NCBI GenBank assembly: GCA_900541925.1 | Contig: UQMB01000002.1 | Location: forward strand, 49,429 to 113,428 | Length of the DNA: 64,000 nucleotides | Source of the DNA: an uncultured Bacteroidales bacterium | GTDB taxonomy: Bacteria; Bacteroidota; Bacteroidia; Bacteroidales; UBA932 | Direction of reading: 5' to 3' | In this document: positions 24,807 through 60,488 of the stretch, one piece after another | Layout of the letters: every line of letters begins with the position of its first letter | How positions within the stretch are numbered: the first letter of the stretch is position 1 | The notes under the pieces: model-generated | Database searches by the model: none | What the model was told of the DNA's origin: nothing | What the model saw: the letters and a program-made list of their open reading frames with translations, nothing else | Made by a program: the position numbers and the translations under genes

Positions 24807-25970
24807 ATGCTTGACGTCCATACAGCCACATACCTCATAAACGGCGGCACCAGCCTGACTCTTGGCGTACTGCTGCTTACGCTCAAGCCTTTTCAGGGCA
24901 CGGAGAGCAAACTCTATCGGACCATCAAGCAATACCTTGCATATACAGCATTCATCGACGTCCTCATAGACGCGGTGATGCTGTATGTGATTTTCAGGGG
25001 GATAGGCAACGGATTCCAGAACTCTTTCGCATTGCCGGCCGCCTACTGGTGTCAGGTTTTCTTCTTGACATCCGCAACCTTGATGCTCCTCCATGAACAC
25101 ACCGCATACAGGCGCTTCCTCAGATGGGGGACATATCCGCTTGGCGTGCTGATGCTGCTCTTCTTGGGAGGATTCGTGGCGTTCCTGGCAGGACACGGCG
25201 GCACACCGGACCCGTTCACGCACTACTGCCGCACCGGCTGGTATGCCGCACTGACCATAGCCGCGCATATCCTTCTGCTTCTTGCGATACTCGGCAGTTT
25301 CGTCCTGATCGCGATGGCTGCAAGGCGGTTCTCGCTCAATGTCGTCAACTTCTTCTCCGGGGATGATGCGGTGAAGATCGGCCGAGCCAGACAGTTCTTC
25401 ACGATATACGGCGCCTACATCATCGTCACCACCTTGAACATGTTTCTCTTCTGCGAGACGCTCAGCATAGTGTGCATAAACCTGCGCGCCGTTTTGAAAC
25501 TGCTGAATGTCATCATGGTGTTCAACATGGAACCGCTTCTTATGAGCACCGGACAGAAAATGGCCGGCTTTGATGTTGCCGAAGAAGCAGAAGCAGAAAA
25601 GGAGGCGCCGCTCCGCGCGGAAATGGTAGAAAGCGCGATGAAGAGGTGGCTGAACTCCAAAGACAAACCATATCTCAAAGAGGGACTCGCCCTCTCCGAC
25701 GTGGCGGACCAGATGGGGATAAGCGGCCCCCAGCTCTCATACTACCTCAACCACTATCTCGGAGTCAACTTCAACTCGTGGATTAACCGGCTCCGTATCG
25801 GGGAGGCCAAACGCCTGATGGAGGCAAACCCACAGATGCAGATTTCCGATGTCGCCTCCGCTGTCGGCTACTCCGAAATCGCAGTCTTCTCCCGCAATTT
25901 CAAGAAGGCCGAAGGAATCACGGCCACCGAGTACAGGAAGCGCTGCGCTCCGGAAGTCGAGATTCAGTAA
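24807..25970 (+). CDS. AraC-family transcriptional regulator with N-terminal multi-TM sensor domain
   Basis: 387 aa: about six TM helices followed by a C-terminal AraC HTH (LSDVADQMGISGPQLSYYLNHYLGVNFNSWINRLRIGEAKRLM). Confidence 0.8.
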   Translation: MLDVHTATYLINGGTSLTLGVLLLTLKPFQGTESKLYRTIKQYLAYTAFIDVLIDAVMLYVIFRGIGNGFQNSFALPAAYWCQVFFLTSATLMLLHEHTAYRRFLRWGTYPLGVLMLLFLGGFVAFLAGHGGTPDPFTHYCRTGWYAALTIAAHILLLLAILGSFVLIAMAARRFSLNVVNFFSGDDAVKIGRARQFFTIYGAYIIVTTLNMFLFCETLSIVCINLRAVLKLLNVIMVFNMEPLLMSTGQKMAGFDVAEEAEAEKEAPLRAEMVESAMKRWLNSKDKPYLKEGLALSDVADQMGISGPQLSYYLNHYLGVNFNSWINRLRIGEAKRLMEANPQMQISDVASAVGYSEIAVFSRNFKKAEGITATEYRKRCAPEVEIQ

Positions 25971-26291
25971 TCTTATAGCCCCTTTCTGCGTCTACTGGGC
26001 GGCGGGGCTGTGGCCTGCTGGGTGATGTGGGCTGCTGGGTGATGTGGCGACGTGTGCGTGGCGATGGCGGACATCCGTGGAACATCCTCCGGCGCGTGGA
26101 ACATCACCGTGCGCACCAGGGCCGTTTCCACTCACCGCGCCGGTTTTCGGAAACCCGCGTGCGCAAAAAGGGGGCTGGTGCGCACGGCGAATCAACCAGA
26201 ATCAGGAAAACTCAACCCTTTTCAGGCAAATGCCGCCGACCGCCGGTTTTTGCCGCTTACCCATGAAGTAAACTGGAAATATTCTATTTTA

Positions 26292-26302
26292 CCCCCCCCC
26301 CC
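26292..26302 (+). repeat. Homopolymeric poly(C)11 tract upstream of the fimbrial locus
   Basis: Eleven consecutive C residues about 140 bp upstream of the fimbrillin ATG (26442), in a GC-rich intergenic region. Confidence 0.9.
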
Positions 26303-26441
26303 ATTTGACCAAATAATAGAGAAATAATCAAACAAAATGTCCGAAAAAACGACCAAATTTGCGCGTTGGGGTGATTCAGACCAGATGATTCCCGCAAGCT
26401 ATAACGAACACTTAAATTTGAAATTAAAATATTTTAGCCAG

Positions 26442-27632
26442 ATGAAAAAAGTTTTGACAGCCGCAATATTGGCGGTAACAACCTGCGCTTTTGTCGGCTG
26501 CACGAAGAACGAGGTGAGATCCATCAGCGACAACCCTCAGGCAGTCCGTTTCCTCCCGCTTAACGGCAAACACTCCACCAAGGACATGGTCGACGGCAAT
26601 ACCTATCCTAAAGATCTCCCGTTCGGCACGCTCGCATACTACCTTCCAAGCGGAAACTGGAACGCCAACATGGCGGATGCCACTCTCTACATCCCTATAA
26701 GCAAGGTGGTGAACAAATCCGGCGCGGCCAGCGGCAACGCATGGGAAGTTGAAGGGAAGGAATACTATTGGCCGAAGAGCGGCACACTCACCTTCTTCGC
26801 CTATAGCCCGTTCTCCTATCAAGAGGCTGGCGGAGGCGATCTCAATATTGAGAGCCTCTCAGGCAATGACGGTATACAGATAGTGGACTATGATGTGGAT
26901 GCGCATCAGGACACCGACTTCATGGTGGCTGACATTGCCAAGGACAAGACAGCGAACGAGTCGAACGGCGGATACACCGGTGTCCCTATTGTATTCCGTC
27001 ACAAGCTTTCGCAGATAGTCGGCATCAACTTCCAGACCGTCATCACCAACACCGAAGGCAATCTCGTGGAGCATGATTACTCGTACGGACGCAGCACCAA
27101 CGGACCCCTGCAAGCAGGCGACATAGTGTTCAAACTCAAGAAAGTGGAGGTCAGAAACCTCTATACAAAGGGCACTTACGGATACACAACCACAGATGCA
27201 GATCCTGTAGCAGAGCATTGGAGTCCTCTGTCCAACAAAAATCCCTACACCTGGTTCAATAAAGCCCCTGAGGCATTTGTCGACAACACCAAGTTCAACC
27301 TGACATACAAGACCCAAGATGACACCCGCAACAAGTATCTCCTCGTCCTGCCTCAGCCTCTTATCACCCCCGGCACCACAACTCCTAAAACAACGGATCC
27401 GCTCATCCACATCGAATACCAGGTGCTGACCTACAGCGACGCTACCCACCACTCCACCGAGAATGTATCTGAGGATGTTTATCTGTATAACATCCATGGC
27501 AGCGCCAACGCAATCGATATGAACAAGAAGATAACCTACAACTTCAAGATCAATCTCGAGAACCGCAAGATCTACTGGGCTCCGTCCGTTGTGGACTGGG
27601 GAAGCGTAACTTACGACAACATCATCAAATAG
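26442..27632 (+). CDS. Fimbrillin-family (type V pilin, FimA/Mfa-like) lipoprotein
   Basis: Start reassigned to ATG 26442 (MKKVLTAAILAVTTCAFVGC, a lipobox); a TAaaTTTG -7 box sits at 26413..26420. Conserved fimbrillin motifs (FFAYSPF, DFMVADIAKD, VPIVFRHKLSQI, C-terminal DWGSV). Confidence 0.8.
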   Translation: MKKVLTAAILAVTTCAFVGCTKNEVRSISDNPQAVRFLPLNGKHSTKDMVDGNTYPKDLPFGTLAYYLPSGNWNANMADATLYIPISKVVNKSGAASGNAWEVEGKEYYWPKSGTLTFFAYSPFSYQEAGGGDLNIESLSGNDGIQIVDYDVDAHQDTDFMVADIAKDKTANESNGGYTGVPIVFRHKLSQIVGINFQTVITNTEGNLVEHDYSYGRSTNGPLQAGDIVFKLKKVEVRNLYTKGTYGYTTTDADPVAEHWSPLSNKNPYTWFNKAPEAFVDNTKFNLTYKTQDDTRNKYLLVLPQPLITPGTTTPKTTDPLIHIEYQVLTYSDATHHSTENVSEDVYLYNIHGSANAIDMNKKITYNFKINLENRKIYWAPSVVDWGSVTYDNIIK

Positions 27633-27855: not shown

Positions 27856-29091
27856 ATGGGAAGATTCGCAACAATGACAATCGTCGCCACAGCCGTGGCG
27901 GGCCTGCTTTTCCTCTCCCCTGCCAAGGCGCAGGATGATAGAGGAAGAGCAGCCGGATTCTCTGTTGACTTCCGCTGGGACAGGGCCGTGCTCGACCCCG
28001 CCTACAAGAACACCGGCGAAAGGCTGCGCGCCCTTGCAGACTCCATCGCATCCATAGGTATAGGGAGCATCGACAGCCTCAGCGTGCTGTCGTTCTCCTC
28101 ACCTGAAGGCAACTACACCTACAACCTCAGGCTCGCTGAGAGGCGTGCGGCCGCAATCGGAGGCTACCTGCGGAGCAACTGGCCGGATCTCGACGGCAGG
28201 CTGCGCGTCAGTGGCGGCGGAGAGTCCTGGCAGCTCCTCCGGGAGCGGGTGCTCAGCAGCACCTCCCTAAGCGAGACACAGAAGCGCAATCTGCTCTCCA
28301 TCATAGACTCCCCCGTATCAGCCGAGCAGAAAAAGGCCCTCATCCACACCTACGATCCGGCTCTCTGGAACCGGCTCGTCCGCCACTGGTTCCCAGATAT
28401 GAGGCGCACGTTCATCCGCCTCAACTGGACGGAGCCGCGCCCGGAGTTCCCTTCCGTTCCCGCGCTCTCCGCATGTCTGCCTGACGTGACCCTCACATCT
28501 CCGGGAAGCGACATCATCCCGTCCTCCCGCGAATCCTACGGCTACCGTACAATTCTCGCGCTCAAGACCAACCTGCTCTACGACCTTGTCACAGCCCTCA
28601 ACTTCGAACTTGAGGTGCCGCTCGGGGACAAGTTCTCCCTGGCTGTCGAAGATGTTTTCCCTTGGTGGAACTGGGGCCCTAACGGACGGAAGTACTGCTT
28701 CCAGATGTGGGAAATCGGGGTTGAACCGAGATGGTGGTTCGCCAAGAGCCCGGAGCGCGACCGTCTCTCCGGACACTTCCTCGGACTCTACGCGATGTCC
28801 GCCAAATACGACTTCCAGTGGGACACCAAGTTCTGCTGGCAGGGAGAATACTGGTCTACGGGACTCACCTACGGCTACTCCATGCCTCTCGGCGAGGTCT
28901 GCAACCTGGAACTCTCCGCCTCGCTCGGATTTCTGCGCAGCGACTGGAGGCACTATCAGCCCGACGAAAACTACGAGCACCTCTACCGTGACCCGTTCCG
29001 CACCGGCGTATTCTCATGGTTCGGCCCGACGAAGCTCAAGGTCTCGCTCGTCGTACCTATACAGGTAAAATACAGGAGGAACGCGAGATGA
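27856..29091 (+). CDS. DUF3575/DUF3868-like outer-membrane protein of fimbrial operons
   Basis: 411 aa with a signal peptide, an OmpA-like segment (AERRAAAIGGYL) and an aromatic-rich beta-barrel-like C-terminus. Family assignment is from memory of Bacteroides fimbrial-operon architecture. Confidence 0.55.
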   Translation: MGRFATMTIVATAVAGLLFLSPAKAQDDRGRAAGFSVDFRWDRAVLDPAYKNTGERLRALADSIASIGIGSIDSLSVLSFSSPEGNYTYNLRLAERRAAAIGGYLRSNWPDLDGRLRVSGGGESWQLLRERVLSSTSLSETQKRNLLSIIDSPVSAEQKKALIHTYDPALWNRLVRHWFPDMRRTFIRLNWTEPRPEFPSVPALSACLPDVTLTSPGSDIIPSSRESYGYRTILALKTNLLYDLVTALNFELEVPLGDKFSLAVEDVFPWWNWGPNGRKYCFQMWEIGVEPRWWFAKSPERDRLSGHFLGLYAMSAKYDFQWDTKFCWQGEYWSTGLTYGYSMPLGEVCNLELSASLGFLRSDWRHYQPDENYEHLYRDPFRTGVFSWFGPTKLKVSLVVPIQVKYRRNAR

Positions 29092-30119
29092 GACTGTCCG
29101 GCACCACATATAGGCTCATCGGCAGGGCTGCGCTCTCCGCCATCCTCGTCTCGGCAGTCCTGACAAGCTGCGAGCGGCGGCCGCTGGACGACCCGGACTT
29201 CAACACCAGTATCAATGTCAAGGTGAGCGTCGAGGCCATCTCCAATGTCACCTGCGACATCTACAACGACAAGATACCCGTCCCGAAGATAGACCCGGAC
29301 ATGATGCATGTGCTCTTCTTTGAGGAGACTGGCGACGCTCTCGCGACCGAGGCCTATATCAGCACCAAGTCGACCGACTCCGACGGGAACACTGTCTTCA
29401 GCGGCAAACTCAGCATCGCCCCGGGGACATACAGGATGTACATCTACAACTTCGGCACGGAGAACACCCTCATCCGCAACACCTACAACTGGGAAAGCGC
29501 CGAGGCCTACGCCGCCAATGTCCCGGACAGGATATCCAGAAGCTACCAGACCAAGGTGCCGGCAGAGGAATCCATCACATACTCTCCGGATCATCTCGTG
29601 GTGGCGAGAAGCCCTCGGGAGGTAATCCCGTATCATTCGGGGATATACACCGTCAAGGCGGAGTCGCGTTCGGTGGTGGAGAGTTACTATCTGCAGATCA
29701 AGGTGGACGGTATCGAATATGTCTCCGGTGCGAGGGCGGTGCTCTCGGGGATGTCCGGCGGCAACCGCATAGCCCTCGGCGAGCGCATGGACGATCCGCG
29801 CACTTCCGTCTACTTCCCTCTGGTCAAGAGCGACGACAAGGGCGTGCCTGTCATCTGCTGCATCTTCAACACCTTCGGTCGCCCGAACGACTCGCACAAC
29901 TCACTTGAGGTCACGTTCGACATAGTGACGAAGGCAGGCGAATCCGTCCAGAAGACCTTCGACATCTCCGAGCTCTTCCGCAGCGAAGACTGCATCAAGC
30001 ATCACTGGCTGCTGCTCGACGAGACCATCAAAATCGATCCGCCGAAGACGCCCGACCAGGGCGGATTCAACCCGTCCGTAGATGACTGGGAGAACGAGAA
30101 CCACGATATAATATTATAA
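29088..30119 (+). CDS. Lipoprotein, putative fimbrial anchor/accessory subunit (Mfa2/FimB-like or DUF5119-like)
   Basis: Start ATG 29088 (overlaps the upstream stop, preceded by AGGAGGA). Lipobox LTSC; 343 aa. Position and size match anchor subunits of type V pilus operons. Confidence 0.45.
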   Translation: MRLSGTTYRLIGRAALSAILVSAVLTSCERRPLDDPDFNTSINVKVSVEAISNVTCDIYNDKIPVPKIDPDMMHVLFFEETGDALATEAYISTKSTDSDGNTVFSGKLSIAPGTYRMYIYNFGTENTLIRNTYNWESAEAYAANVPDRISRSYQTKVPAEESITYSPDHLVVARSPREVIPYHSGIYTVKAESRSVVESYYLQIKVDGIEYVSGARAVLSGMSGGNRIALGERMDDPRTSVYFPLVKSDDKGVPVICCIFNTFGRPNDSHNSLEVTFDIVTKAGESVQKTFDISELFRSEDCIKHHWLLLDETIKIDPPKTPDQGGFNPSVDDWENENHDIIL

Positions 30120-30137
30120 AATCAAAAATACCAATTT

Positions 30138-31169
30138 ATGAAAAGAATTATTTTACTCGCAGCATCGGCCATGGCAATACTTGCCGGCTGCACCAGGACG
30201 GAGATCCGCTCCATAGCGGACGAGCCGCAGCAGATCACTTTCAGGACCATTGAGACGAAAGCTGCTGATGACTTCCTGAACACCAAGAAGTTCTACTCTT
30301 ATGCCTACTTCCTTCCGTCAGGCCAGGATTGGGCGACAAAATTCGCAGATGCCCAGGCCTACATCCCGGGTGCACTTATCGCCTTCAACACAACTGACAA
30401 CGCCTGGAAAGCGTCCGGAGCGACATACTACTGGCCGAAACAAGGCTCTCTCACCTTCTTCGCCTGGACTGACTACACCGATGCTCCTGCGCCAACACTG
30501 GCAGGATGCGCGAAAGACAAGGGGATCACATTTACCGCCTACTCCGCTTTTGACCATAAGAATAAGGACCTGCTTGTGGCAGACATAGCAAAAGACATGA
30601 ACGGCAAGAACCTGACAACACATCAGGGATGGAAGCCAGGCGTGCCTACCGTATTCCACCATGTCCTCTCCAATCTCGCATTCACAATCAAGACCAACGA
30701 AAACTATGCCGGAGCCACATATAGTCTCAAATCCATCACATTGAAGAATATCAGCACCAAGGGTGATTATGCCCAGGGCAGCCCTACCGCCACCGTTGCA
30801 GAAAATGTATGGACAGGCCATGTCGATGTCAAGGACATGCCGGTATTCACGAGCGCTGCAGGACAGTCTGTCAGCAGCACAGCTGCACTGCTCTCACCGA
30901 GCGCGGATGACTTCAGCATTGTGCTCCCTCAGAAATTCGCTGACGCGACTCCAGAAATCGAGATAGTCTACACCATCACCACCAACTATACCGGGACTGC
31001 TGTTGTGGAGACCGTGACAGAGACCAAGCCTCTCAAGGACATCTACACCGAAGGCTGGGTGTCCGGCAAGAAATACACTCTCAACATCAAGCTCTCCCTC
31101 AACGAGATTCTCTGGGATCCTTCAGTTGAGGGCTGGGAAGATGGTGCCGTTACCGATATCCAGTTCTAA
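30138..31169 (+). CDS. Fimbrillin-family lipoprotein (paralogue 2)
   Basis: 343 aa, lipobox ILAGC; shares the YYWPKxGSLTFFA and VPxVFxHxLS motifs with the 26442 and 31268 genes. Confidence 0.8.
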   Translation: MKRIILLAASAMAILAGCTRTEIRSIADEPQQITFRTIETKAADDFLNTKKFYSYAYFLPSGQDWATKFADAQAYIPGALIAFNTTDNAWKASGATYYWPKQGSLTFFAWTDYTDAPAPTLAGCAKDKGITFTAYSAFDHKNKDLLVADIAKDMNGKNLTTHQGWKPGVPTVFHHVLSNLAFTIKTNENYAGATYSLKSITLKNISTKGDYAQGSPTATVAENVWTGHVDVKDMPVFTSAAGQSVSSTAALLSPSADDFSIVLPQKFADATPEIEIVYTITTNYTGTAVVETVTETKPLKDIYTEGWVSGKKYTLNIKLSLNEILWDPSVEGWEDGAVTDIQF

Positions 31170-31183
31170 GACACTTTTATGAT

Positions 31184-31246
31184 GCGCGGCACTTTATAAT
31201 CCGCGCGTCTTCAGCACAGTCTGAAAGGGCCTGGCCGCCCTTTCAG
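31184..31246 (+). promoter_or_regulatory. Two intergenic stem-loops between fimbrillin genes (possible attenuator or processing site)
   Basis: GCGCGG-N11-CCGCGC (31184..31206) and a perfect 10-bp stem CTGAAAGGGC/GCCCTTTCAG with a 6-nt loop (31221..31246). No U tract follows. Confidence 0.45.
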
Positions 31247-31267
31247 GCACAAATCAAAACACAAGAA

Positions 31268-32236
31268 ATGCTCAAGAGACTGATTATGGCCGTATTGGTC
31301 CTGACACTTGGCTGCTGCACGAAAATAGTGCAGCAGAGCGGTCCTACGGACAATACCGAAATCAGCTATCAGGTGATAAGCGACAGGACAAAGGCCCCCT
31401 TAGAAGCGTACCCGACAACGGTCCCGTTCGTCTCTTCCGCATGGTATCTGCCACAGGGGAAGAAGTGGGCCGCCAACAAGGCGGACGCCCAACTGTACAT
31501 CTCCTCCGCTGTCATAAGTTACGACCCCACCACAAAGGTCTTCAAGGCGGCGACGCCGTATTATTGGCCCAAGAAGGGGTCTCTCACATTTATGGCCTAT
31601 TCACCGGAATCCGACAAAATACAGATTACCAAAGAGGGCGTGGAGGTTACAGGCTGGGCCACAAACGGGAGCGACAAGAGAATCGATCTTATGGTGGCAG
31701 ACATCAAGTCCGCCAACGGTACTTCATACGGTATGGTCGGCGTACCTATCGTATTCAGGCATATTCTTTCCAAAGTAGCCGTGACGGCATTCATCGAAAA
31801 GGCAGAAACCGGGAAAACGATTTCCCTGAACAGAATAATTTTCCGTAATGTCTATGGCGAGGCGGATTTCAACGGCTCGGAATGGACCAACAGAGGTGAT
31901 GTCCACGATGTTGACAACACGCTGACAAATCCCATAACGCTCAATGTCAACAAGCAAAACATCATCGAGACAATGCTTCTGATACCTCAGAGCCTTTCGG
32001 CTGTCGGCACGAGGGAGAATGTCAAGATGGAGATCTACTACACCATCAATAACAACGGAGCCATCCAAAACGAGAATGTGTCCATATCTCTCAACCAGCA
32101 CGGCGCTGCCTGGGAAAGAGGGAAATACACTGAATATCAGATTATATTCGGAACTTCTGACCATCCTATCGATTTCGGAGGAAGCGTTTCCGACTGGACC
32201 GGCTATGGTAATACTGACATTGTAATCGGAGGATAG
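31268..32236 (+). CDS. Fimbrillin-family lipoprotein (paralogue 3)
   Basis: 322 aa, lipobox LTLGCC, motifs YYWPKKGSLTFMAYSPE and VPIVFRHILSKV. Confidence 0.8.
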   Translation: MLKRLIMAVLVLTLGCCTKIVQQSGPTDNTEISYQVISDRTKAPLEAYPTTVPFVSSAWYLPQGKKWAANKADAQLYISSAVISYDPTTKVFKAATPYYWPKKGSLTFMAYSPESDKIQITKEGVEVTGWATNGSDKRIDLMVADIKSANGTSYGMVGVPIVFRHILSKVAVTAFIEKAETGKTISLNRIIFRNVYGEADFNGSEWTNRGDVHDVDNTLTNPITLNVNKQNIIETMLLIPQSLSAVGTRENVKMEIYYTINNNGAIQNENVSISLNQHGAAWERGKYTEYQIIFGTSDHPIDFGGSVSDWTGYGNTDIVIGG

Positions 32237-32240
32237 AGAC

Positions 32241-33284
32241 ATGCACAAGATAAGAACAGCACTATTCGTATCTGCGGCAGTATTGCTCGGCTCATGCACC
32301 AAACCCCAAGGTGAGGAGCACGGGACAGCCATCGGATTCAGCACAAGCACCGTTTCGCAGGTTGAAGGCACCAAGTCAAACCATACCGGCGAATCAACTA
32401 CGACCGCAACCCTTAAGAACAAATCCTTCGGAATATATGGAATGTATTCAGTCACCGACGGAGGAAAAGGCACCAACGTATTCGACTTTTCTTCTCCGGT
32501 GGAGGTGCGTTATACAACAGACGTCATCAGCCACGAGACCAACTGGACATATACGTTCAGCGGGTCGCAGTATTCCGCCAAGAAGAATTGGAAAAGGAAC
32601 ATGTATTACCGGTTTAGGGCCTATCACCCGTACGATGCCACCATTCTGCAATCCAGCTCATCCGCAGACGGTATCGACATAGAATACCGCGTTCTGGATG
32701 ACAGTTATGACCTTCTGCTGGCTTCGGCAAAGCGATATCCTGCAAATGACGGCTACGGCAGAGTGCAGATGGAGTTCCATCACGCTCTGTGCGCACTGAA
32801 ATTCAAAATAGCATTCAAGGAGACAGTCACGCCATCCACATACACGGACAATATAATCCATTTCTACATCAAGGGATTAAACGCCTACGGGCATCTTAAC
32901 CACACCGGATTCGGCGCAGACGAAGCGTTCAACTGGCAAGGGACATTCAACAGCCAGGACAAACTTTACGAATGGACCGGAGACAAGACATTCGGAGTCA
33001 AGGGACCGGTAGAGCCTACGGATATATTGGAAAGCAACGAATACTTTTTCGCAATTCCGCAAACGTGCAGTGACCCGGCAAACGGTCCGACATCCATCCA
33101 CCTGTTCACCCGGAAAAGCGGAGGAGACAACGAAATCGACCATACCGTCAATCTGCAGCCGCTCAAATGGGAAGCCGGCAAAATCTACACTTACACGCTT
33201 CTTGTCAATAAATCAGACATCGAGGTATCCGTCACCATCGAGCCTTGGCTCACCAAACAAGTCCCTGTGGACATTTATCTGTAG
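32241..33284 (+). CDS. Fimbrillin-like lipoprotein (divergent paralogue 4)
   Basis: 347 aa, lipobox LLGSC, motif EFHHALCALKF and the C-terminal EPWLTKQVPVDIYL typical of Mfa-like pilins; lower GC (about 49%). Confidence 0.6.
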   Translation: MHKIRTALFVSAAVLLGSCTKPQGEEHGTAIGFSTSTVSQVEGTKSNHTGESTTTATLKNKSFGIYGMYSVTDGGKGTNVFDFSSPVEVRYTTDVISHETNWTYTFSGSQYSAKKNWKRNMYYRFRAYHPYDATILQSSSSADGIDIEYRVLDDSYDLLLASAKRYPANDGYGRVQMEFHHALCALKFKIAFKETVTPSTYTDNIIHFYIKGLNAYGHLNHTGFGADEAFNWQGTFNSQDKLYEWTGDKTFGVKGPVEPTDILESNEYFFAIPQTCSDPANGPTSIHLFTRKSGGDNEIDHTVNLQPLKWEAGKIYTYTLLVNKSDIEVSVTIEPWLTKQVPVDIYL

Positions 33285-33290
33285 TACGCC

Positions 33291-34772
33291 ATGAAGAGGT
33301 TTCTATTGTTAATATTCTTCATTTCCCTGATAGGATGCAGCAAGAACCCGCACGCCACTGAAAGCGGAAGCGGAAATATCGAGATATCCATAACTCTTCC
33401 TTCCACCAAATCAGCCAGGAGCGGGGATGAGATAAATTCTCTGCGCATCTGGCTCGTGGACAAGGACGATAATATAGTAAGAGTCATCAGTGCTGACGGA
33501 AGTGCTGCCGGAAGCCCGGCCTCGGGAGAGGACGGAATCACCATGACAGGAATGGGAACTGCATCGGCACAGTTTATCAATGTGGAACGCGCCTCATACA
33601 CGCTCTATTTCGTGGCCAACAGCGACGCGCTGTCTTCGTATACTGCGGGAGACATAATTGATGATGCTTTCAAGAAGGCGACCATCAACTATGAGTACGG
33701 TATATACGGAATGCCGCTGAGCGTCGTGAAAGAAATCCATGTAGTCCCGGGCAAGAATATGATCAGCGCTTCTCTTGTCAGAATATGCGCCAAGATACAT
33801 GTAACTGTCCGGAACAGCACCCTTGACAAAATGATTTGGATCAAGGACATAAGCCTCAATGACATCCGCCCGGACAAGACCTATCTTTTCGAGCAAGACA
33901 GCTTCTTTCCAGGGGCCGGATACGAGGAATTGGAGAAAATGACCACCATAATAGGTCTTGAGCCAAACACGGAGATGACTTATCCTGCCGTGTACCTTTT
34001 CGAGACCGATAAAGCTCCGGGAATAAAAATCCGCGGAGGTGTATTTGCCAGCAATCAGACAAAAGAGCCGGACGTAATCACCAAGGACATCTCTTCATAC
34101 TCATTCGAAGAGACGAGCGAAAGCCTGAATGAAGGCAACCAGTATCTGGTAATGAACAAAAGCATGAGATATCTGCTGAAAGGACACCATAGCGGCTCTG
34201 TGGGTATTGATTTTCTCGCAAGCGGAGACGGCCCGAAGAACCACCTGCTTGCCAGCAGCGACATTGAAGACTATATCTGGACTTATGAGTCGCAATATGT
34301 GTCATGGTGGACGACATATTACGATCTTAAAAACATCGGACAGAACAAATACCTGAAAAACTCCTCCGGCAAGCTTGACCTTGGTACAAGTATAGATAAC
34401 TTCACTTTCAACGGAGATAAGACCAACGGGCACACAATCAGCTCCGGCGGCAATTATATATGGAACAATGCCGGAACCCTTGACTTCAACGACAAAGGCA
34501 AGTCCCCGCAGAATCAATGGTACTTCTATAAAGTAAATTCAGTCACTACCACAGAGGAAGTATTTGACGGTGCGGAAGCCCTTATAAACTACTCCGACAA
34601 CGATCTTAGCCATATAGACCCGGATCTTGGCGTAGCTGTCCCTCTACAGAGAATCAAGCGCAACGAGAGTATCGACATAAGAGTCAGTATCTTTTTCAAC
34701 AAGAATACCGGGAAACTGGATTTCGAGACAGAGATTTGGAAAACGGTCGATAATGAAACCACTTTTGATTAG
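33291..34772 (+). CDS. Lipoprotein, putative fimbrial tip/accessory protein
   Basis: 493 aa, lipobox LIGCS, about 48% GC, tightly linked (7-bp gap) to the pilin gene upstream; no recognisable catalytic motifs. Confidence 0.45.
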   Translation: MKRFLLLIFFISLIGCSKNPHATESGSGNIEISITLPSTKSARSGDEINSLRIWLVDKDDNIVRVISADGSAAGSPASGEDGITMTGMGTASAQFINVERASYTLYFVANSDALSSYTAGDIIDDAFKKATINYEYGIYGMPLSVVKEIHVVPGKNMISASLVRICAKIHVTVRNSTLDKMIWIKDISLNDIRPDKTYLFEQDSFFPGAGYEELEKMTTIIGLEPNTEMTYPAVYLFETDKAPGIKIRGGVFASNQTKEPDVITKDISSYSFEETSESLNEGNQYLVMNKSMRYLLKGHHSGSVGIDFLASGDGPKNHLLASSDIEDYIWTYESQYVSWWTTYYDLKNIGQNKYLKNSSGKLDLGTSIDNFTFNGDKTNGHTISSGGNYIWNNAGTLDFNDKGKSPQNQWYFYKVNSVTTTEEVFDGAEALINYSDNDLSHIDPDLGVAVPLQRIKRNESIDIRVSIFFNKNTGKLDFETEIWKTVDNETTFD

Positions 34773-34781
34773 ATTACCATC

Positions 34782-37700
34782 ATGAAGAAAAGATACTTTT
34801 CCACCATATTCGCAGCGATATTCCTGCTTATGATGACTTCCTGCGTCAGGGAGCAGTTTGCTCCGGGCGGCCTTACCGGCGGAGAGGGCTACCTCTACCT
34901 GAAATTCGGCTCGGCTCCGAATGTGGAGGTAAGCACCAAAGCCACCCTCAAAGCCGAGAGTGAAAACAGGATAATGAACCTTTATGTGTTCGTCTTCGAT
35001 AAGAACGGACACAAGATTCACAACAAGTGGTATAGCGAACTTGACCGCACGAACAGCAAAGGAGAACTGGATATCATCGAAGAAGGATGGTATAGGGAGA
35101 ACAGTTCGCAGGCAGACCAGTCAAGTACCGGAGTCATCAAGATCAAATCCCCTTCCGGGTCAGGATTCAAAATCTATGTGTTTGCGAACATTGACGGAGA
35201 TATGGTGAAAATATCTTCTGAAATGCTGTCTCACAACATAAATACCGAGGATGACATAAAGAATTTCCGGGTATATATCAATCAGGAGACAACATCCAGA
35301 AACGGATACTTCCCTATGTCCGGAAGCATATCCGGAGTTACGGTAAGCGACGGTGAGGGCATTACCATAGGTGGAGGAGGCTCAGGGAGCCTTATTCTCC
35401 GAAGAATGGATGCCAAGATAAAGTTCACGTTCAAAGCAGGCACAAGACCTGACGAGAACGGCCAGGTCATCCAGTCTTTCGAGCCGAAAGGTTGGAGAGT
35501 ATTCAATATCCCTAAGACGGCCTTTCTGATGGAGGGAAATGAAGACGCATGCAGCGTTGATCCGAATACTCCGACCGGAGACTACGCAAAGTACGCATCT
35601 TTATTCTTCGACAGCGAATGGGCAAATTTCGAAGAATTCCCGGACCAGAACACCTCGTCTTTCTCTTTCTACATGATGGAGAACAGGCAGACGCCGAAAA
35701 ACTCCTCATTCACAAGCTATCAAGACAGGAGCAGGCAGAAAAAGACCGCCACCGGACTCAATGAAGTACAGGCTGTGGAATACACCAACCTTTCCGGAAA
35801 GACAAGTACCAAGTCCATGCGCATCTTCCAGAATGCAAACGACTTCTCCACTTACGTCCTGGTATCCGCCAAGGTCACCATGAAACTGACCGGCACCGAG
35901 GCAGGACAGACTTTGGGCGGGGACGTGCTGTATCTTATCCATCTTGGGGACTGGGACAGCACCATTCATAACGGAAATTCAGAGCATTGGAATGATGACG
36001 AATACGGGAATGTGGCCAATTCCCAGACCAGAAGGAATACAAGTTACAACTATACCGTCACCATCAATTCGGTCAACAACATAAGAATAGAAGTCGAGAC
36101 CTCGGACGGGGAAAATATCGAGAACCAGCCCGGTGCTTCAGGGCAGATAACTATAGCCAAAGAGGAAATCGCCATTTGCGACGCCCACTACGAGACCAAG
36201 ACCATGACCTTCAGCGCGAAGAATTTCTTCGAGGGGACAACCGCTACGGCCGATGACCTGACATGGCGGGTAAAGACACCTTTCGGGGAAGGCTCTCCGG
36301 CCATAGGACATGACGGAGAGGACATCCCGGCCGGACTGGACTACAAATGGGTTCACTTCAGACTCAACAAAAAGGATGCGTCCACCAAATTTTATAAAGA
36401 CATACGACGCAGGTATACAAACCGCGCTTTCGCCGAGTCATCCACTTTCAGAAGCGCCGAAGAGAACAAGGAGTCTGACGGAAGCAACGACCCCGGCCTT
36501 GAGGGCTACCACAATGACGGCGTGATGGATATCATCGATATGGTGAAATACATCAAGACGCAAGTGAAAAGATACGCGTCATGGCTTGAGAACGGCGGTA
36601 ATTATGCAGACTACAAATGCGACTTCGACAGCGAGAATCTCAATGATGCCAAGATATGCGTAACTGTGTTCGTGGACGAGTATTACTACGATAAGGATCC
36701 TATCTTCGGCGGGTCTTCCCCTACGCTTTGGAAGCGATTTGTCAATAAGGAAGAGCGCGCCATGCACATATTGTGCAACTCCAATACCAGTAAGGACCTT
36801 GAATCGCGCGCCACCGGCTCCGTCATCACCATACAGCAAAAACCAATAAAGAGCATATACAACACGGATGAAAGTTACACCAGGCTCCAAAATGCATGGG
36901 GGCTCGAATCCACGGACGAATATGCGGATAAGGTATTCACCTACAATCAAGACGGGTCCCGGAACGGCTCTGGCAAGAATACGGATGACTACAATGGCCT
37001 GGCCAACAGTGTCTTCGAATGGGGACTTGCGCCAAACGGAACCACAGTGAGCAACATCACCACCATACAGGACAACGTCAGATGGGACAAATATCTCTCG
37101 TTTGAAGTGGGAAACGAACTGCCTCAGCTAAAGGACGGATATGAGTCGCTAAGATATATATGCATGTCCCGCAACAGGGACAACAACGGAAACGGCGTTA
37201 TAGACCGCGATGAGGTAAGATGGTATCTTGCATCCGTAAGACAGCTGATAGGTCTGTATGTGGGAGACGGCGTACTGGAAAGCTCGGTACGTATATACAA
37301 CAGATCCACCGCTGACCGCAATTCGGATAATCCTGCGCGCTGGAGGCAGCATGTCATCTCCAGCACCAAGTATCCAAGCGACTCTGAGCCTACTGTCATC
37401 TGGGGAGAGGAGGGTATCTCCACAGGAAATATCAGCGGCTCATTCGACTGGGGAGGAATTACAAATTTTACCATAAGATGTGTAAGGAACCTTGGTCTGG
37501 CAAACGATGCGCCTATAAATAAGACGCCGGACGACTATATCCAGGCCTCGCAGAATGCGGACGGCTCATATACTTTCGAATGCACCCACATCAATGAAAG
37601 CGCCCTAAGGTACTACTCTTCAAGAGAGCTTGACTATGAGGATGAGCGTGCCACCGCAAACAGCCTTTACAAGAAATTCGAGACCGCACCCGCGGACCAA

Positions 37701-38027
37701 AGCTGGACATCAGGAGCGGTATCGTTCAAAGCCCTCAATGATGAAGTCAGCAAATATGGTTCTTCCGTATATGCAGGGTATTGCCCTGACGGATACAGGA
37801 TTCCAAGCCAGACGGAACTTGCTGTAATAAGATACTACACGAGCTTGGTGTCGTCCGGAACTTACCCAAGCCGAACCTTCTGGTCCTTTGGAGTGGAGGC
37901 TTTGGGTGGCAGCGGAAAAGACGGCGGCAACAAATACGGATTTTGTGCAGACGGTGGCAACATTTCACTCAGCGCAAACGCTACTTTCTCTAAAGCACGC
38001 TGCGTTCGTGACATACGTGTAGAATAG
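34782..38027 (+). CDS. Large (1081 aa) lipoprotein, putative fimbrial tip adhesin with C-terminal DUF1566 (Lcl C-terminal)-like domain
   Basis: Lipobox MMTSC; an N-terminal Mfa-like fold segment (MNLYVFVFDKNGHK); the C-terminal ~280 aa carry DUF1566-like motifs (RWYLASVRQL, GYRIPSQTELAVI, FWSFG, terminal RCVRDIRVE). About 47% GC. Confidence 0.6.
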   Translation: MKKRYFSTIFAAIFLLMMTSCVREQFAPGGLTGGEGYLYLKFGSAPNVEVSTKATLKAESENRIMNLYVFVFDKNGHKIHNKWYSELDRTNSKGELDIIEEGWYRENSSQADQSSTGVIKIKSPSGSGFKIYVFANIDGDMVKISSEMLSHNINTEDDIKNFRVYINQETTSRNGYFPMSGSISGVTVSDGEGITIGGGGSGSLILRRMDAKIKFTFKAGTRPDENGQVIQSFEPKGWRVFNIPKTAFLMEGNEDACSVDPNTPTGDYAKYASLFFDSEWANFEEFPDQNTSSFSFYMMENRQTPKNSSFTSYQDRSRQKKTATGLNEVQAVEYTNLSGKTSTKSMRIFQNANDFSTYVLVSAKVTMKLTGTEAGQTLGGDVLYLIHLGDWDSTIHNGNSEHWNDDEYGNVANSQTRRNTSYNYTVTINSVNNIRIEVETSDGENIENQPGASGQITIAKEEIAICDAHYETKTMTFSAKNFFEGTTATADDLTWRVKTPFGEGSPAIGHDGEDIPAGLDYKWVHFRLNKKDASTKFYKDIRRRYTNRAFAESSTFRSAEENKESDGSNDPGLEGYHNDGVMDIIDMVKYIKTQVKRYASWLENGGNYADYKCDFDSENLNDAKICVTVFVDEYYYDKDPIFGGSSPTLWKRFVNKEERAMHILCNSNTSKDLESRATGSVITIQQKPIKSIYNTDESYTRLQNAWGLESTDEYADKVFTYNQDGSRNGSGKNTDDYNGLANSVFEWGLAPNGTTVSNITTIQDNVRWDKYLSFEVGNELPQLKDGYESLRYICMSRNRDNNGNGVIDRDEVRWYLASVRQLIGLYVGDGVLESSVRIYNRSTADRNSDNPARWRQHVISSTKYPSDSEPTVIWGEEGISTGNISGSFDWGGITNFTIRCVRNLGLANDAPINKTPDDYIQASQNADGSYTFECTHINESALRYYSSRELDYEDERATANSLYKKFETAPADQSWTSGAVSFKALNDEVSKYGSSVYAGYCPDGYRIPSQTELAVIRYYTSLVSSGTYPSRTFWSFGVEALGGSGKDGGNKYGFCADGGNISLSANATFSKARCVRDIRVE

Positions 38028-38489: not shown

Positions 38490-38713
38490 CCAGTCCCGGC
38501 AGTGACCTGTGCTTTCCGCCGCACCTGCTCTTGCTGCCACCGTCGCGCGCAGCCCCCGATGCTAAGACGAGCCTCGCGTACACCACAGGGCCATTTTCTG
38601 CACCGCACTGTCCGGCGAGGCCGTCCCGTACAACAGAAGGCCTGATTCTGTACGGCGCGGTGGGGCCTGCCGTCACAGGACCGCCTCTTGCCCATTGCTG
38701 AAGCCCGTTGCTG

Positions 38714-38836
38714 CCAGGTGTGAGCCTATTCCGGCATTTCCGCTGCTACCTGGACCTTCCAGCTGCTCTGCATGGCTCTCTCAGGCATCCGCCTACGCCA
38801 GGTGTGAGCCTATTCCGCCGAATCGGCTCACACCTG
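38714..38836. repeat. GC-rich REP-like palindromic units (40-mer CCAGGTGTGAGCCTATTCCGGCATTTCCGCTGCTACCTGG and a hairpin variant)
   Basis: A 40-mer at 38714..38753; a 10-bp-stem hairpin GGTGTGAGCC-N14-GGCTCACACC at 38801..38834. The same 40-mer recurs in opposite orientation at 59344, 60230 and 60314. Confidence 0.8.
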
Positions 38837-59038: not shown

Positions 59039-59286
59039 GATAATGCATTTTTCTGGAATCATCAGGAAATTATTTGCTCATCTCCTCCTCAAAGAGTTGC
59101 ATGGCATTGACTTTTGTCTTTTCAGCAATGTCAATATAGGGCTTCATGGCCTGGTAGTCGGAGTGGCCGGGGCATGTCCCCGTGCCCTGAGGCGCTGCGC
59201 AAGCGCGCCATCCCGCCCCCGGTCACTGCCAGCAACCATTTGCCACGCAAAGTTCCGCGGCCGCCTGCCGGTCAGGAGCCGAAAAC

Positions 59287-60353
59287 GGCTCACACCTGGA
59301 AGCGGCGGGAGCCGCAGAAGGCCTTGCAGGGCATGTGGGCGGCCCAGGTAGCAGCGGAAACGCCGGAATAGGCTCACACCTGGCAGCGACGGTGGCCGCA
59401 GAGGGCCTGGCAGGAGGCGTTCCTCCGGGAGTGAATGAGAACGGGCAGGTCGGACGCTGGGACTTCGGGAAGGGCAAGGCACGCGCGGCACTTTCCGCCA
59501 GAAAATGCCACCAACGATACATGGCAATATGTCCGGTGTAACAGCATTTCTACGGACAAAATGTGTTCCTGAGCCTTTTGGCCGGCGAAACGCGCCTTTG
59601 CACGGACAAAAGGCCGATGCTCAGACGCGCCAATGCTCATCAACTGCCGCCCGGGCGGGGGCATTGTTTGACAAAAGCCCGATGCTCCCTCTGCCGACGA
59701 GGACGACACACACAGCGACCATGTGCTCGGTGGCAGATAAGTGTCTGATAATGAGCGAAATAATGATTTGTCCTGTCTGGTTTCGCCGACAGGTAAAATG
59801 CTCTTTTGTTTGATTATCAATGTGTTATCCGCCACCGCCGATGGCAGAAATTGTGCCCGAACAGTCTCGCGACCCGAGAAATGTCAACCATGCTGCGAGC
59901 GGTAATCTCCGTCGGCATGTGAGAGCAGTAATATCAGGGTTGCAGAAATCAGCAGACGGAACCATTGAGCCGGCACCGCCGCCGGAATGTACGGTCTCCG
60001 GCGGCTACAGGTCGGGCGCTGCGGGGAGCTCGCCCGTAAAGGCTCTCCTCGCGCCCGACTGTTGCCCGTGTTGTCACCCGAGCCCCCCAGCACAAGGACT
60101 CTGTCGACGGCTTGACTAAGAAGTGCTCATCAGAGCACCGGCGCGGTGAGTGGAAACGCCTCTGGTCGCACCGCGGTGTTCCACACGCCGACAGATGTTC
60201 CACAGGCGCGTATGCCAGCGATAGTTCGTGCAGGTAGCAGCGGAAACGCCGGAATAGGCTCACACCTGGAAGCGGCGGGAGCCGCAGAGGGCCGCGCGGG
60301 GCAGGTTGGCGGTCCAGGTAGCAGCGGAAACACCGGAATAGGCTCACACCTGG
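59287..60353. repeat. GC-rich noncoding tract with REP-like 40-mers (59344..59383, 60230..60269, 60314..60353) and an ~68-bp unit (60138..60205) that is the inverted repeat of 26076..26142
   Basis: By-eye alignment. The 40-mer CCAGGTAGCAGCGGAAACGCCGGAATAGGCTCACACCTGG occurs three times, each followed by a similar ~45-bp segment (AAGCGGCGGGAGCCGCAGA...). The reverse complement of 60138..60205 matches 26076..26142 at about 85%. Confidence 0.75.
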
Positions 60354-60488
60354 CAGGGGCAGGCTTCATGCGAGTTATTGTGAGGTGGTGTGCGGATGCG
60401 GCGGCGAGGCCCCGCTGGGCCCTATACGCAGTGTGCTCATGACCGACCCGCCAGCTAGGCCCATGTCGGTCACCCCGCCCATAATGGA

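Follow-up and report, generated by a model that had tools for sequence, protein, structure and literature searches.

Promoter regions of surface-protein genes in Neisseria and Haemophilus carry simple repeats, such as poly-G at porA, poly-C at opc, TAAA at nadA and TA at hif. Most of these repeats lie inside the -35/-10 spacer, and those of nadA, which are located upstream of the core promoter, can work through the phasing of a regulator or an architectural protein. The promoter-associated repeats of both genera are covered in a review (PMC11868660). In Bordetella, C-stretches control the fimbrial genes fim2, fim3 and fimX, and there the C-stretch and the functional promoter overlap, the tract lying between the -10 box and the site of the activator (PMC1891110). 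For Bordetella pertussis and Bordetella bronchiseptica, the promoter C-stretch was described at fim2, fim3, fimX and fimN (Willems et al., 1990, as cited in PMC1891110). A homopolymer outside the core promoter is known from Helicobacter pylori, in which a T-tract tunes the expression of the adhesin gene sabA via axial alignment; it was proposed that changes in alignment and curvature between upstream elements and the core promoter result in a multiphasic adhesin output (PMC4081817).

In Bacteroidales, phase variation of surface structures is ascribed mainly to invertible promoters (PMC11868660, PMC12632263), also for the Mfa1 type V fimbriae of Phocaeicola vulgatus (PMC12940148). Inversion-based phase variation is described throughout this order and repeat-based phase variation in many other phyla. 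Full-text literature searches yielded no report of repeat-driven pilus phase variation or of a homopolymer-controlled promoter in Bacteroidales, and for Bacteroides, Prevotella, Porphyromonas or type V pili they gave nothing comparable on phase variation by homopolymers or slipped strands. The closest item was a speculative remark on a C4/C5 frameshift in a polysaccharide locus of B. fragilis. Here, a poly(C) tract upstream of a type V pilus operon is analyzed in a window of 64 kb from an uncultured gut Bacteroidales species, that is, the whole stretch of DNA under study, and compared with these systems.

Results

The poly(C) tract and its position

The sequence across the tract reads TATTCTATTTTA-CCCCCCCCCCC-ATTTGACC and contains exactly 11 C at 26292-26302, as expected from the original prediction. 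It is the only homopolymer of more than 8 bases in the window, the next longest C or G runs having 6 bases. Counted by length, the C runs of the window number 10107, 3102, 656, 132, 29 and 7, with none until 11, and the counts drop ∼4.5-fold per added base. C runs of at least 11 bases are expected 0.07 times per window under an i.i.d. model and ∼0.004 times when the observed decay is extrapolated. No other G/C run of at least 8 bases could be identified in any of the 39 related loci that were fetched. The tract is thus an uninterrupted G/C mononucleotide run in the length range considered hypermutable at contingency loci (about 7-9 bases or more), and it is exceptional in the window.

The tract is located in the 5' region of a surface-structure operon encoding a type V pilus, with conserved non-coding elements on both sides. 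It lies 139 nt upstream of the ATG of the first fimbrillin gene (26442) and 111 nt upstream of a -7 box, TAAATTTG (26413-26420), in agreement with the ∼140 and ∼110 bp that had been predicted. The 470-bp intergenic region consists of a distal part (25971-26240) and a proximal part (26241-26441). The tract had been placed in a GC-rich, repeat-laden region; this description fits the distal part only, and the tract belongs to the proximal part, which is AT-rich with 39% GC. Directly around it, the AT content is 70-75%, compared with 43% in the whole window. The following features could be distinguished:

24807-25970, + strand: AraC-family regulator with a C-terminal HTH_18 domain (residues 300-379)
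25971-26240, + strand: GC-rich distal region (63% GC) with hairpin-forming interspersed repeats and tandem repeats of 17- and 19-nt periods
26270-26291, + strand: invariant AT-rich block of 22 nt, AAACTGGAAATATTCTATTTTA, abutting the 5' end of the tract (0 of 22 columns variable in 17 haplotypes)
26292-26302, + strand: poly(C)11 tract, hypermutable element, C7-C13 in conspecific assemblies and never interrupted
26303-26332, + strand: ATTTGAC-N11-GAAATAATCAAA, a conserved element directly 3' of the tract, from the haplotype alignment and the distant locus L003
26311-26357, + strand: A-tracts with ∼11 bp phasing (26311, 26322, 26330/34, 26344, 26355); 62 of 2000 shuffles reach a 10-11 bp periodicity
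26413-26420, + strand: -7 box, the sole perfect TAnnTTTG of the intergenic region, 21 nt before the ATG
26442-27632, + strand: first fimbrillin, 396 aa, Mfa_like_1, with lipoprotein signal MKKVLTAAILAVTTCAFVGC, assigned from Pfam and relatives
27856-38027, + strand: rest of the type V pilus operon, encoding DUF3575, DUF5119, three further Mfa_like_1 proteins, a 493-aa and a 1081-aa protein

The pilus operon and its neighboring regulator

The type V fimbrial locus expected downstream of the tract could be confirmed with Pfam, which identified four Mfa_like_1 proteins, DUF3575, DUF5119 and a protein with a FimA-like domain (P_gingi_FimA), and a lipobox is present in the first gene. The FimA-like domain covers only the N-terminus of the 1081-aa protein encoded by the last gene (34782-38027). 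The 493-aa protein (33291-34772) had no match in Pfam or NCBIfam, and the NCBIfam search gave no names for the pilus proteins. The 493-aa and 1081-aa proteins are possible tip or adhesin components. The longest open reading frames of DUF3575 (27856-29091) and DUF5119 (29016-30119) overlap by 76 nt, and in relatives these genes are called as 405-aa and 343-aa proteins with an overlap of 4 nt.

Gene callers start the first fimbrillin at the ATG at 26337 (431 aa). This start was rejected, as it is absent or out of frame in relatives and the stretch is hence non-coding; because of this call, the exact 396-aa product is not on record.

Upstream of the operon, methylmalonyl-CoA/oxaloacetate decarboxylase genes are followed by the AraC-family regulator. 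In place of a soluble sensor domain, its N-terminus consists of a hydrophobic region of ∼250 residues, which is apparently embedded in the membrane by several transmembrane helices. Synteny between the regulator and the fimbrial operon extends to the distant locus L003 (46% identity; regulator at about 1800-2875 of that locus). Its protein identity among strains is uneven and ranges from 87% to 98%.

Tract length in related assemblies

Related loci were traced from the exact AraC protein and 10 fimbrillin alleles (proteins 74-95% identical) to ENA, NCBI and Logan contigs, and a conserved 32-mer used as query added six loci from JGI metagenomes. The nucleotide identity to the window was 98-99% for oadB and 97-98% for DUF3575. 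Since the flanking genes are 97-99% identical to the window, all loci belong to one species-level population. The locus is present in many ENA and Logan gut assemblies, with Hadza gut samples among the sources, and in two NCBI MAGs (GCA_052312775.1 and GCA_900767275.1). When 185,579 species-representative genomes were scanned with peptide patterns invariant in all 27 aligned fimbrillin alleles, the carrier species was not found; the sole match with a fimbrillin alignment was the distant locus L003 of a Hadza Bacteroidales MAG, with 46% identity. Either the representative genome does not have the locus, or the species is not represented in this set.

An uninterrupted C run was observed at the same position in all 33 assemblies that span the site, with lengths from C7 to C13. 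C10 was the length in 10 assemblies, C9 in nine, C12 in six, C11 in five, C7 in two and C13 in one. One haplotype has the form T+C10, and the bases between the tract and TTGAC are AT, none, TT or TTT, depending on the haplotype.

Three fimbrillin alleles occurred with two tract lengths each, twice C12/C10 and once C9/C10, on flanks of 1.5-4.3 kb that differ by 0-1 SNP. For the allele P0015, C12 in L006 and C10 in L009 was the only difference over 2632 bp, and L006 and L007 differ by one SNP and two C over 4290 bp. For P0063, C9 in L023 and C10 in L024 was the sole difference over 1609 bp. P0100 had C12 in five assemblies and C10 in two, with 0-1 mismatch per 1.5-2 kb. In P0046, on the other hand, C9 was found in all four assemblies, and the modal length is therefore stable over sampling.

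Within P0015 (L006, L007 and L009) and P0100 (L033-L039), C12 or C10 was observed and C11 in neither, which could be chance with small numbers or could reflect two favored states.

Different backgrounds share the same lengths. In the proximal region, wide ranges of length are seen in each of the two major haplotype groups, which argues for many independent length changes. As at contingency loci, the length is polymorphic among very close relatives and changes faster than the flanks. The comparison across strains, for which the original prediction had named uniform length as the adverse outcome, gave C7 and C9-C13, and its view of the tract as a slipped-strand hotspot is borne out by haplotypes that are otherwise identical and differ solely or nearly solely in the tract. 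Judged from these assemblies, the hypermutability of the tract is very probably genuine, and the tract may mutate by slippage at high frequency within populations.

Several Logan contigs start in this stretch. Those of L010, L022 and L028 start precisely at the first C, and those of L038 and L039 start 10 and 4 nt before it, respectively. With k=31, a tract of up to 13 bases is not a repeat, and a contig start at C^n therefore fits a branch in the graph between C^n and a longer allele. The contig starts point to a de Bruijn-graph branch caused by mixed tract lengths in the reads, either biological or technical.

Variability of the first fimbrillin

The first fimbrillin is the most variable gene of the region. 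Its nucleotide identity among strains is 87-95%, compared with 97-99% for its neighbors; its dN/dS ranges from 0.44 to 0.91 (DUF3575, about 0.2; oadB, about 0), and its dS is 2-4x that of the flanking genes. By these measures, the protein resembles a surface antigen that is subject to diversifying or balancing pressure, and such an antigen is typical cargo of a contingency locus.

In public data, hundreds of variants of this fimbrillin were identified, 74-95% identical (845 hits); their first ∼50 residues and their C-terminus do not vary. Many of the Logan contigs have a size of ∼1.4-1.6 kb and span just the first fimbrillin, which suggests that assembly graphs break on both sides of this gene in multi-strain samples.

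Elements around the tract

Column variation was compared among 17 haplotypes, with tract length ignored. Variable columns made up 10 of 29 in the segment before the 22-nt block and 10 of 31 in the segment after the tract. When about 33% of the neighboring columns are variable, the chance of 22 invariant columns is about 0.67^22, or roughly 1.5e-4. The block at 26270-26291 is therefore a candidate protein-binding or UP-like element. Readings of it as a marbox, a sigma-54 or an ECF-type site were rejected, as none of them fitted by eye.

On the other side of the tract, ATTTGAC-N11-GAAATAATCAAA could also be identified, at equal spacing, upstream of the 46%-identical fimbrillin of L003, and 4 of 1000 shuffles reach this score. 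In L003, the stop codon of the AraC gene overlaps the ATTTGAC element and there is no C tract, so that the regulator-operon arrangement is kept without any tract. The phasing of the A-tracts (p about 0.03) suggests that the upstream DNA is intrinsically curved. With its two neighbors, the tract looks like a G:C insert between two constrained AT-rich elements in an apparently curved upstream region.

Further length variation was observed in the proximal part. The A6 run at 26344-26349 varies from A5 to A7 among haplotypes, and a 7-bp indel at 26366-26374 (GGTGATT/GGAGATT present or absent) divides the haplotypes into two groups.

Counting both strands, the 64 kb contain only 23 perfect matches to TAnnTTTG. 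In the stretch of 49 nt that precedes the ATG and contains the -7 box, 3 columns are variable in the 17 haplotypes. No -33 TTTG partner was found for the -7 box at 26413, and a perfect -7 box without this partner suggests an activator-dependent promoter. Neither a -33/-7 pair bracketing the tract nor a promoter motif upstream of it could be detected. Depending on the haplotype, the invariant block and the -7 box are 109 to 122 nt apart, a pattern of helical-phase clustering was not seen, and both the 7-bp indel and the A5-A7 run shift this distance without obvious compensation.

Repeats in the distal part of the intergenic region

Between strains, the distal region 25971-26240 shows large indels, with insertions of up to about 590 bp. 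Its hairpin repeat units recur in other intergenic regions of the window (38711-38836, 59278-59403 and 60137-60356), and one of these recurrences lies directly after the last gene of the pilus operon. In L027, an 84-bp unit is present in 2.6 copies (560-1300), with the hairpin CCAGGTGTGAGC...GCTCACACCTGG. The repeat units had no match in Rfam or Pfam and look like a REP/MITE-like element family. Rfam searches at permissive thresholds of the intergenic region and of three relatives with insertions also gave no match.

A second hypervariable site was observed in the same intergenic region, where L029 and L030 differ over 4215 bp only by one 8-bp CTGCTGGG unit. This site (988-995 in L029) is a short GC-rich tandem repeat that corresponds to the 17-nt-period array of the window (26009-26048).

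Two kinds of putative open reading frames were discarded. A 91-aa frame that spans the tract (26052-26327) lies within the indel-ridden repeats and is not conserved, and those called inside the insertions of L023 and L027 belong to no credible family.

Discussion

The tract can be read as a slipped-strand hypermutable repeat that would act as a spacer of variable length about 120 bp upstream of the type V pilus promoter. It would separate the invariant block (26270-26291) from the conserved AT-rich element with phased A-tracts (26303-26357), which lies upstream of a putatively activator-dependent promoter (-7 box at 26413, without -33 TTTG). Each C gained or lost would turn the upstream block by ∼34 degrees relative to everything downstream, and this rotation may alter the alignment of a bound factor with the promoter. 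The adjacent membrane-bound AraC-type regulator is a candidate for this factor, as is RNA polymerase contacting UP-like DNA. The outcome would be graded or ON/OFF pilus expression inside a clonal population.

Among the described systems, sabA resembles this arrangement in its intergenic homopolymer outside the -35/-10 spacer, in its A-tract or UP-like AT-rich flanks and in a length that varies between strains, at sabA also between clones. The sabA tract, however, is a poly(T) directly next to the -35 element, whereas the tract studied here is a poly(C) and lies farther out, about 85 nt upstream of the expected place of a -33 element. The locus is better described by a sabA-like model, with a distal spacer or phasing rheostat, than by the core-promoter arrangement of Bordetella. 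With the repeats of Neisseria and Haemophilus, which act as contingency loci, the tract shares its nature as a simple-sequence repeat in the 5' region of a surface-protein gene; those systems differ from it in that they all belong to Proteobacteria with sigma-70-type promoters and mostly carry the repeat inside the spacer.

Several observations weigh against the spacer reading. The tract lies far outside the core promoter, 111 nt from the sole canonical -7 box, and L003 keeps its arrangement without a tract. The four C9 assemblies of P0046 speak for a stable modal length. The block-to-box distances show no phase clustering and the indels are uncompensated, and compensation might be expected if phasing were strict. 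Finally, all strains are about 98% identical, so that the persistence of the uninterrupted tract is weak evidence of selection. Taken together, we consider the chances about even that this reading holds and that the tract has a regulatory role in pilus transcription, and any effect of tract length on transcription is wholly inferred.

The strongest alternative is a neutral hotspot, in which slippage is real and the length drifts with no effect on pilus expression or anything else. The distance to the -7 box, the missing helical-phase clustering with uncompensated indels in the interval and the tract-free L003 all suit this explanation, and at about 98% identity between strains there was little time for a neutral tract to decay. 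It does not account as readily for a single long G/C run in 64 kb that has the invariant 22-nt block directly on one side and the conserved element directly on the other and that precedes the most variable gene of the region, nor for the C12/C10 pair in two alleles with C11 in neither. Neutral drift is therefore regarded as possible, though on the unlikely side.

Bordetella fim genes are similar in many respects. In both cases, an uninterrupted poly(C) lies upstream of a major fimbrial subunit gene (C7-C19 there, C7-C13 here), its length is polymorphic among strains, as are the subunit genes themselves, and the promoter depends on an activator, putatively so here. The position of the tract is different, inside the promoter in Bordetella and 111 nt upstream of the -7 box here, and so are the pilus (type V instead of chaperone-usher), the activator (possibly an AraC-type protein instead of BvgA), the sigma factor and promoter type, and the phylum. 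A fim box, BvgA and chaperone-usher genes are not found at this locus, whose genes are Mfa_like_1, DUF3575 and DUF5119 with an AraC-type neighbor. The suggestion that tract length could modulate promoter spacing as in Bordetella was therefore not upheld, as a distance of 111 nt separates the tract from the -7 box and the tract is not enclosed by any -33/-7 pair.

A related alternative is a core spacer of the Bordetella or porA type, formed by TTTACC, 18 nt and AATAAT (26288-26317) and followed by a long leader, in which only some lengths give a functional spacer of 16-18 nt. Indeed, a consensus scan detected this TTTACC/AATAAT pair with the tract within its spacer, and by arithmetic spacers of 16-18 nt would result from C9-C11, the most frequent lengths, wherever the AT behind the tract is retained. 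However, the hexamers are weak (9/12), and chance alone would give about 0.5 such sites in the region. Haplotypes without AT would have spacers of 14-16 nt, and TAnnTTTG is absent within 50 nt downstream of the tract. Primary-sigma promoters of Bacteroidetes consist of a -33 TTTG and a -7 TAnnTTTG and not of TTGACA/TATAAT, and the promoter type assumed here is not normally used by this phylum. A core spacer is thus improbable.

The tract could also be part of a transcribed leader, reached from an upstream promoter or by read-through from the AraC gene, and act at the level of RNA by way of its structure, its stability or the loading of Rho. In favor of this, the stretch from the AraC gene to the fimbrillin contained no terminator-like site, and Rho readily uses C-rich RNA as a substrate. 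On the other hand, the segment 26270-26445 folds no better than shuffles (z = -0.01) with the tract predicted as unpaired, and the sole G-run able to pair with the tract is deleted in half of the haplotypes. Together with the absence of Rfam matches and of a promoter motif upstream of the tract, this makes an RNA-level role quite improbable.

It is also very improbable that the tract is really uniform in length and that its variation is a sequencing or assembly artefact. Illumina reads and assemblers have a higher indel error in long homopolymers, and read errors alone could cause contig breaks at the tract. However, the lengths span 7 to 13, and independent assemblies of the same haplotype agree (C7/C7, C11/C11, C9 in four, C10/C10, and C13 with at least C13). 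In addition, one haplotype had C10 or C12, a 2-base step without C11, within one study and one assembler. As the lengths are reproducible and 2-base steps occur within one study and assembler, a consensus error is unlikely.

Invertible promoters of Bacteroidales are found in the same order, act on type V pili and other surface targets and presumably create heterogeneity in gut populations, as would be the case here. They depend on a dedicated recombinase and on site-specific recombination between inverted repeats, whereas the variable element of this locus is a homopolymer. No convincing inverted repeat, no inverted copy in 35 assemblies and no recombinase among 29 window proteins were found, although a distant, global invertase may be encoded elsewhere in the genome. 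A DNA inversion with the C tract as bystander is extremely improbable: a 14-nt, 86%-complementary inverted repeat (26277-26290 and 26421-34) brackets a 130-bp segment with the tract and the -7 box, and invertible promoters do control Mfa1 fimbriae in Phocaeicola vulgatus (PMC12940148), but the repeat is short, imperfect, AT-rich and of low complexity, all 35 assemblies covering the segment have one orientation, and recombinase and integrase families are absent among the 29 window proteins scanned (about 4-54 kb).

The reading of the tract as a distal spacer can be extended, tentatively and at somewhat less than an even chance, to a heritable and reversible pilus dial at about -120, used by a gut Bacteroidales lineage in place of DNA inversion. 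It would rotate an invariant site, to which the adjacent membrane-embedded AraC-type regulator perhaps binds, against a curved, activator-dependent promoter, and preferred states such as C10 and C12 would coexist in nature. As judged from the sequence, the locus is built like a classic contingency locus, in a phylum, with a pilus type and with a promoter type that are all new for such loci and at an unusual distal position, and a role in expression is plausible.

If the extended reading is true, the locus would be the first contingency locus based on a repeat to be described for type V pili and for gut Bacteroidales, in which phase variation is now explained almost entirely by invertible DNA (PMC11868660, PMC12632263; for Mfa1, PMC12940148). 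Surveys of phase variation in metagenomes seek inversions. If a pilus operon is under the control of a homopolymer as well, such surveys would miss part of the surface variability of these abundant commensals, and assemblers would systematically blur it, as their contigs break at the tract. The locus further draws attention to a pilus subunit that is under strong diversifying pressure, in a species that is common in gut samples of non-industrialised (Hadza) people.
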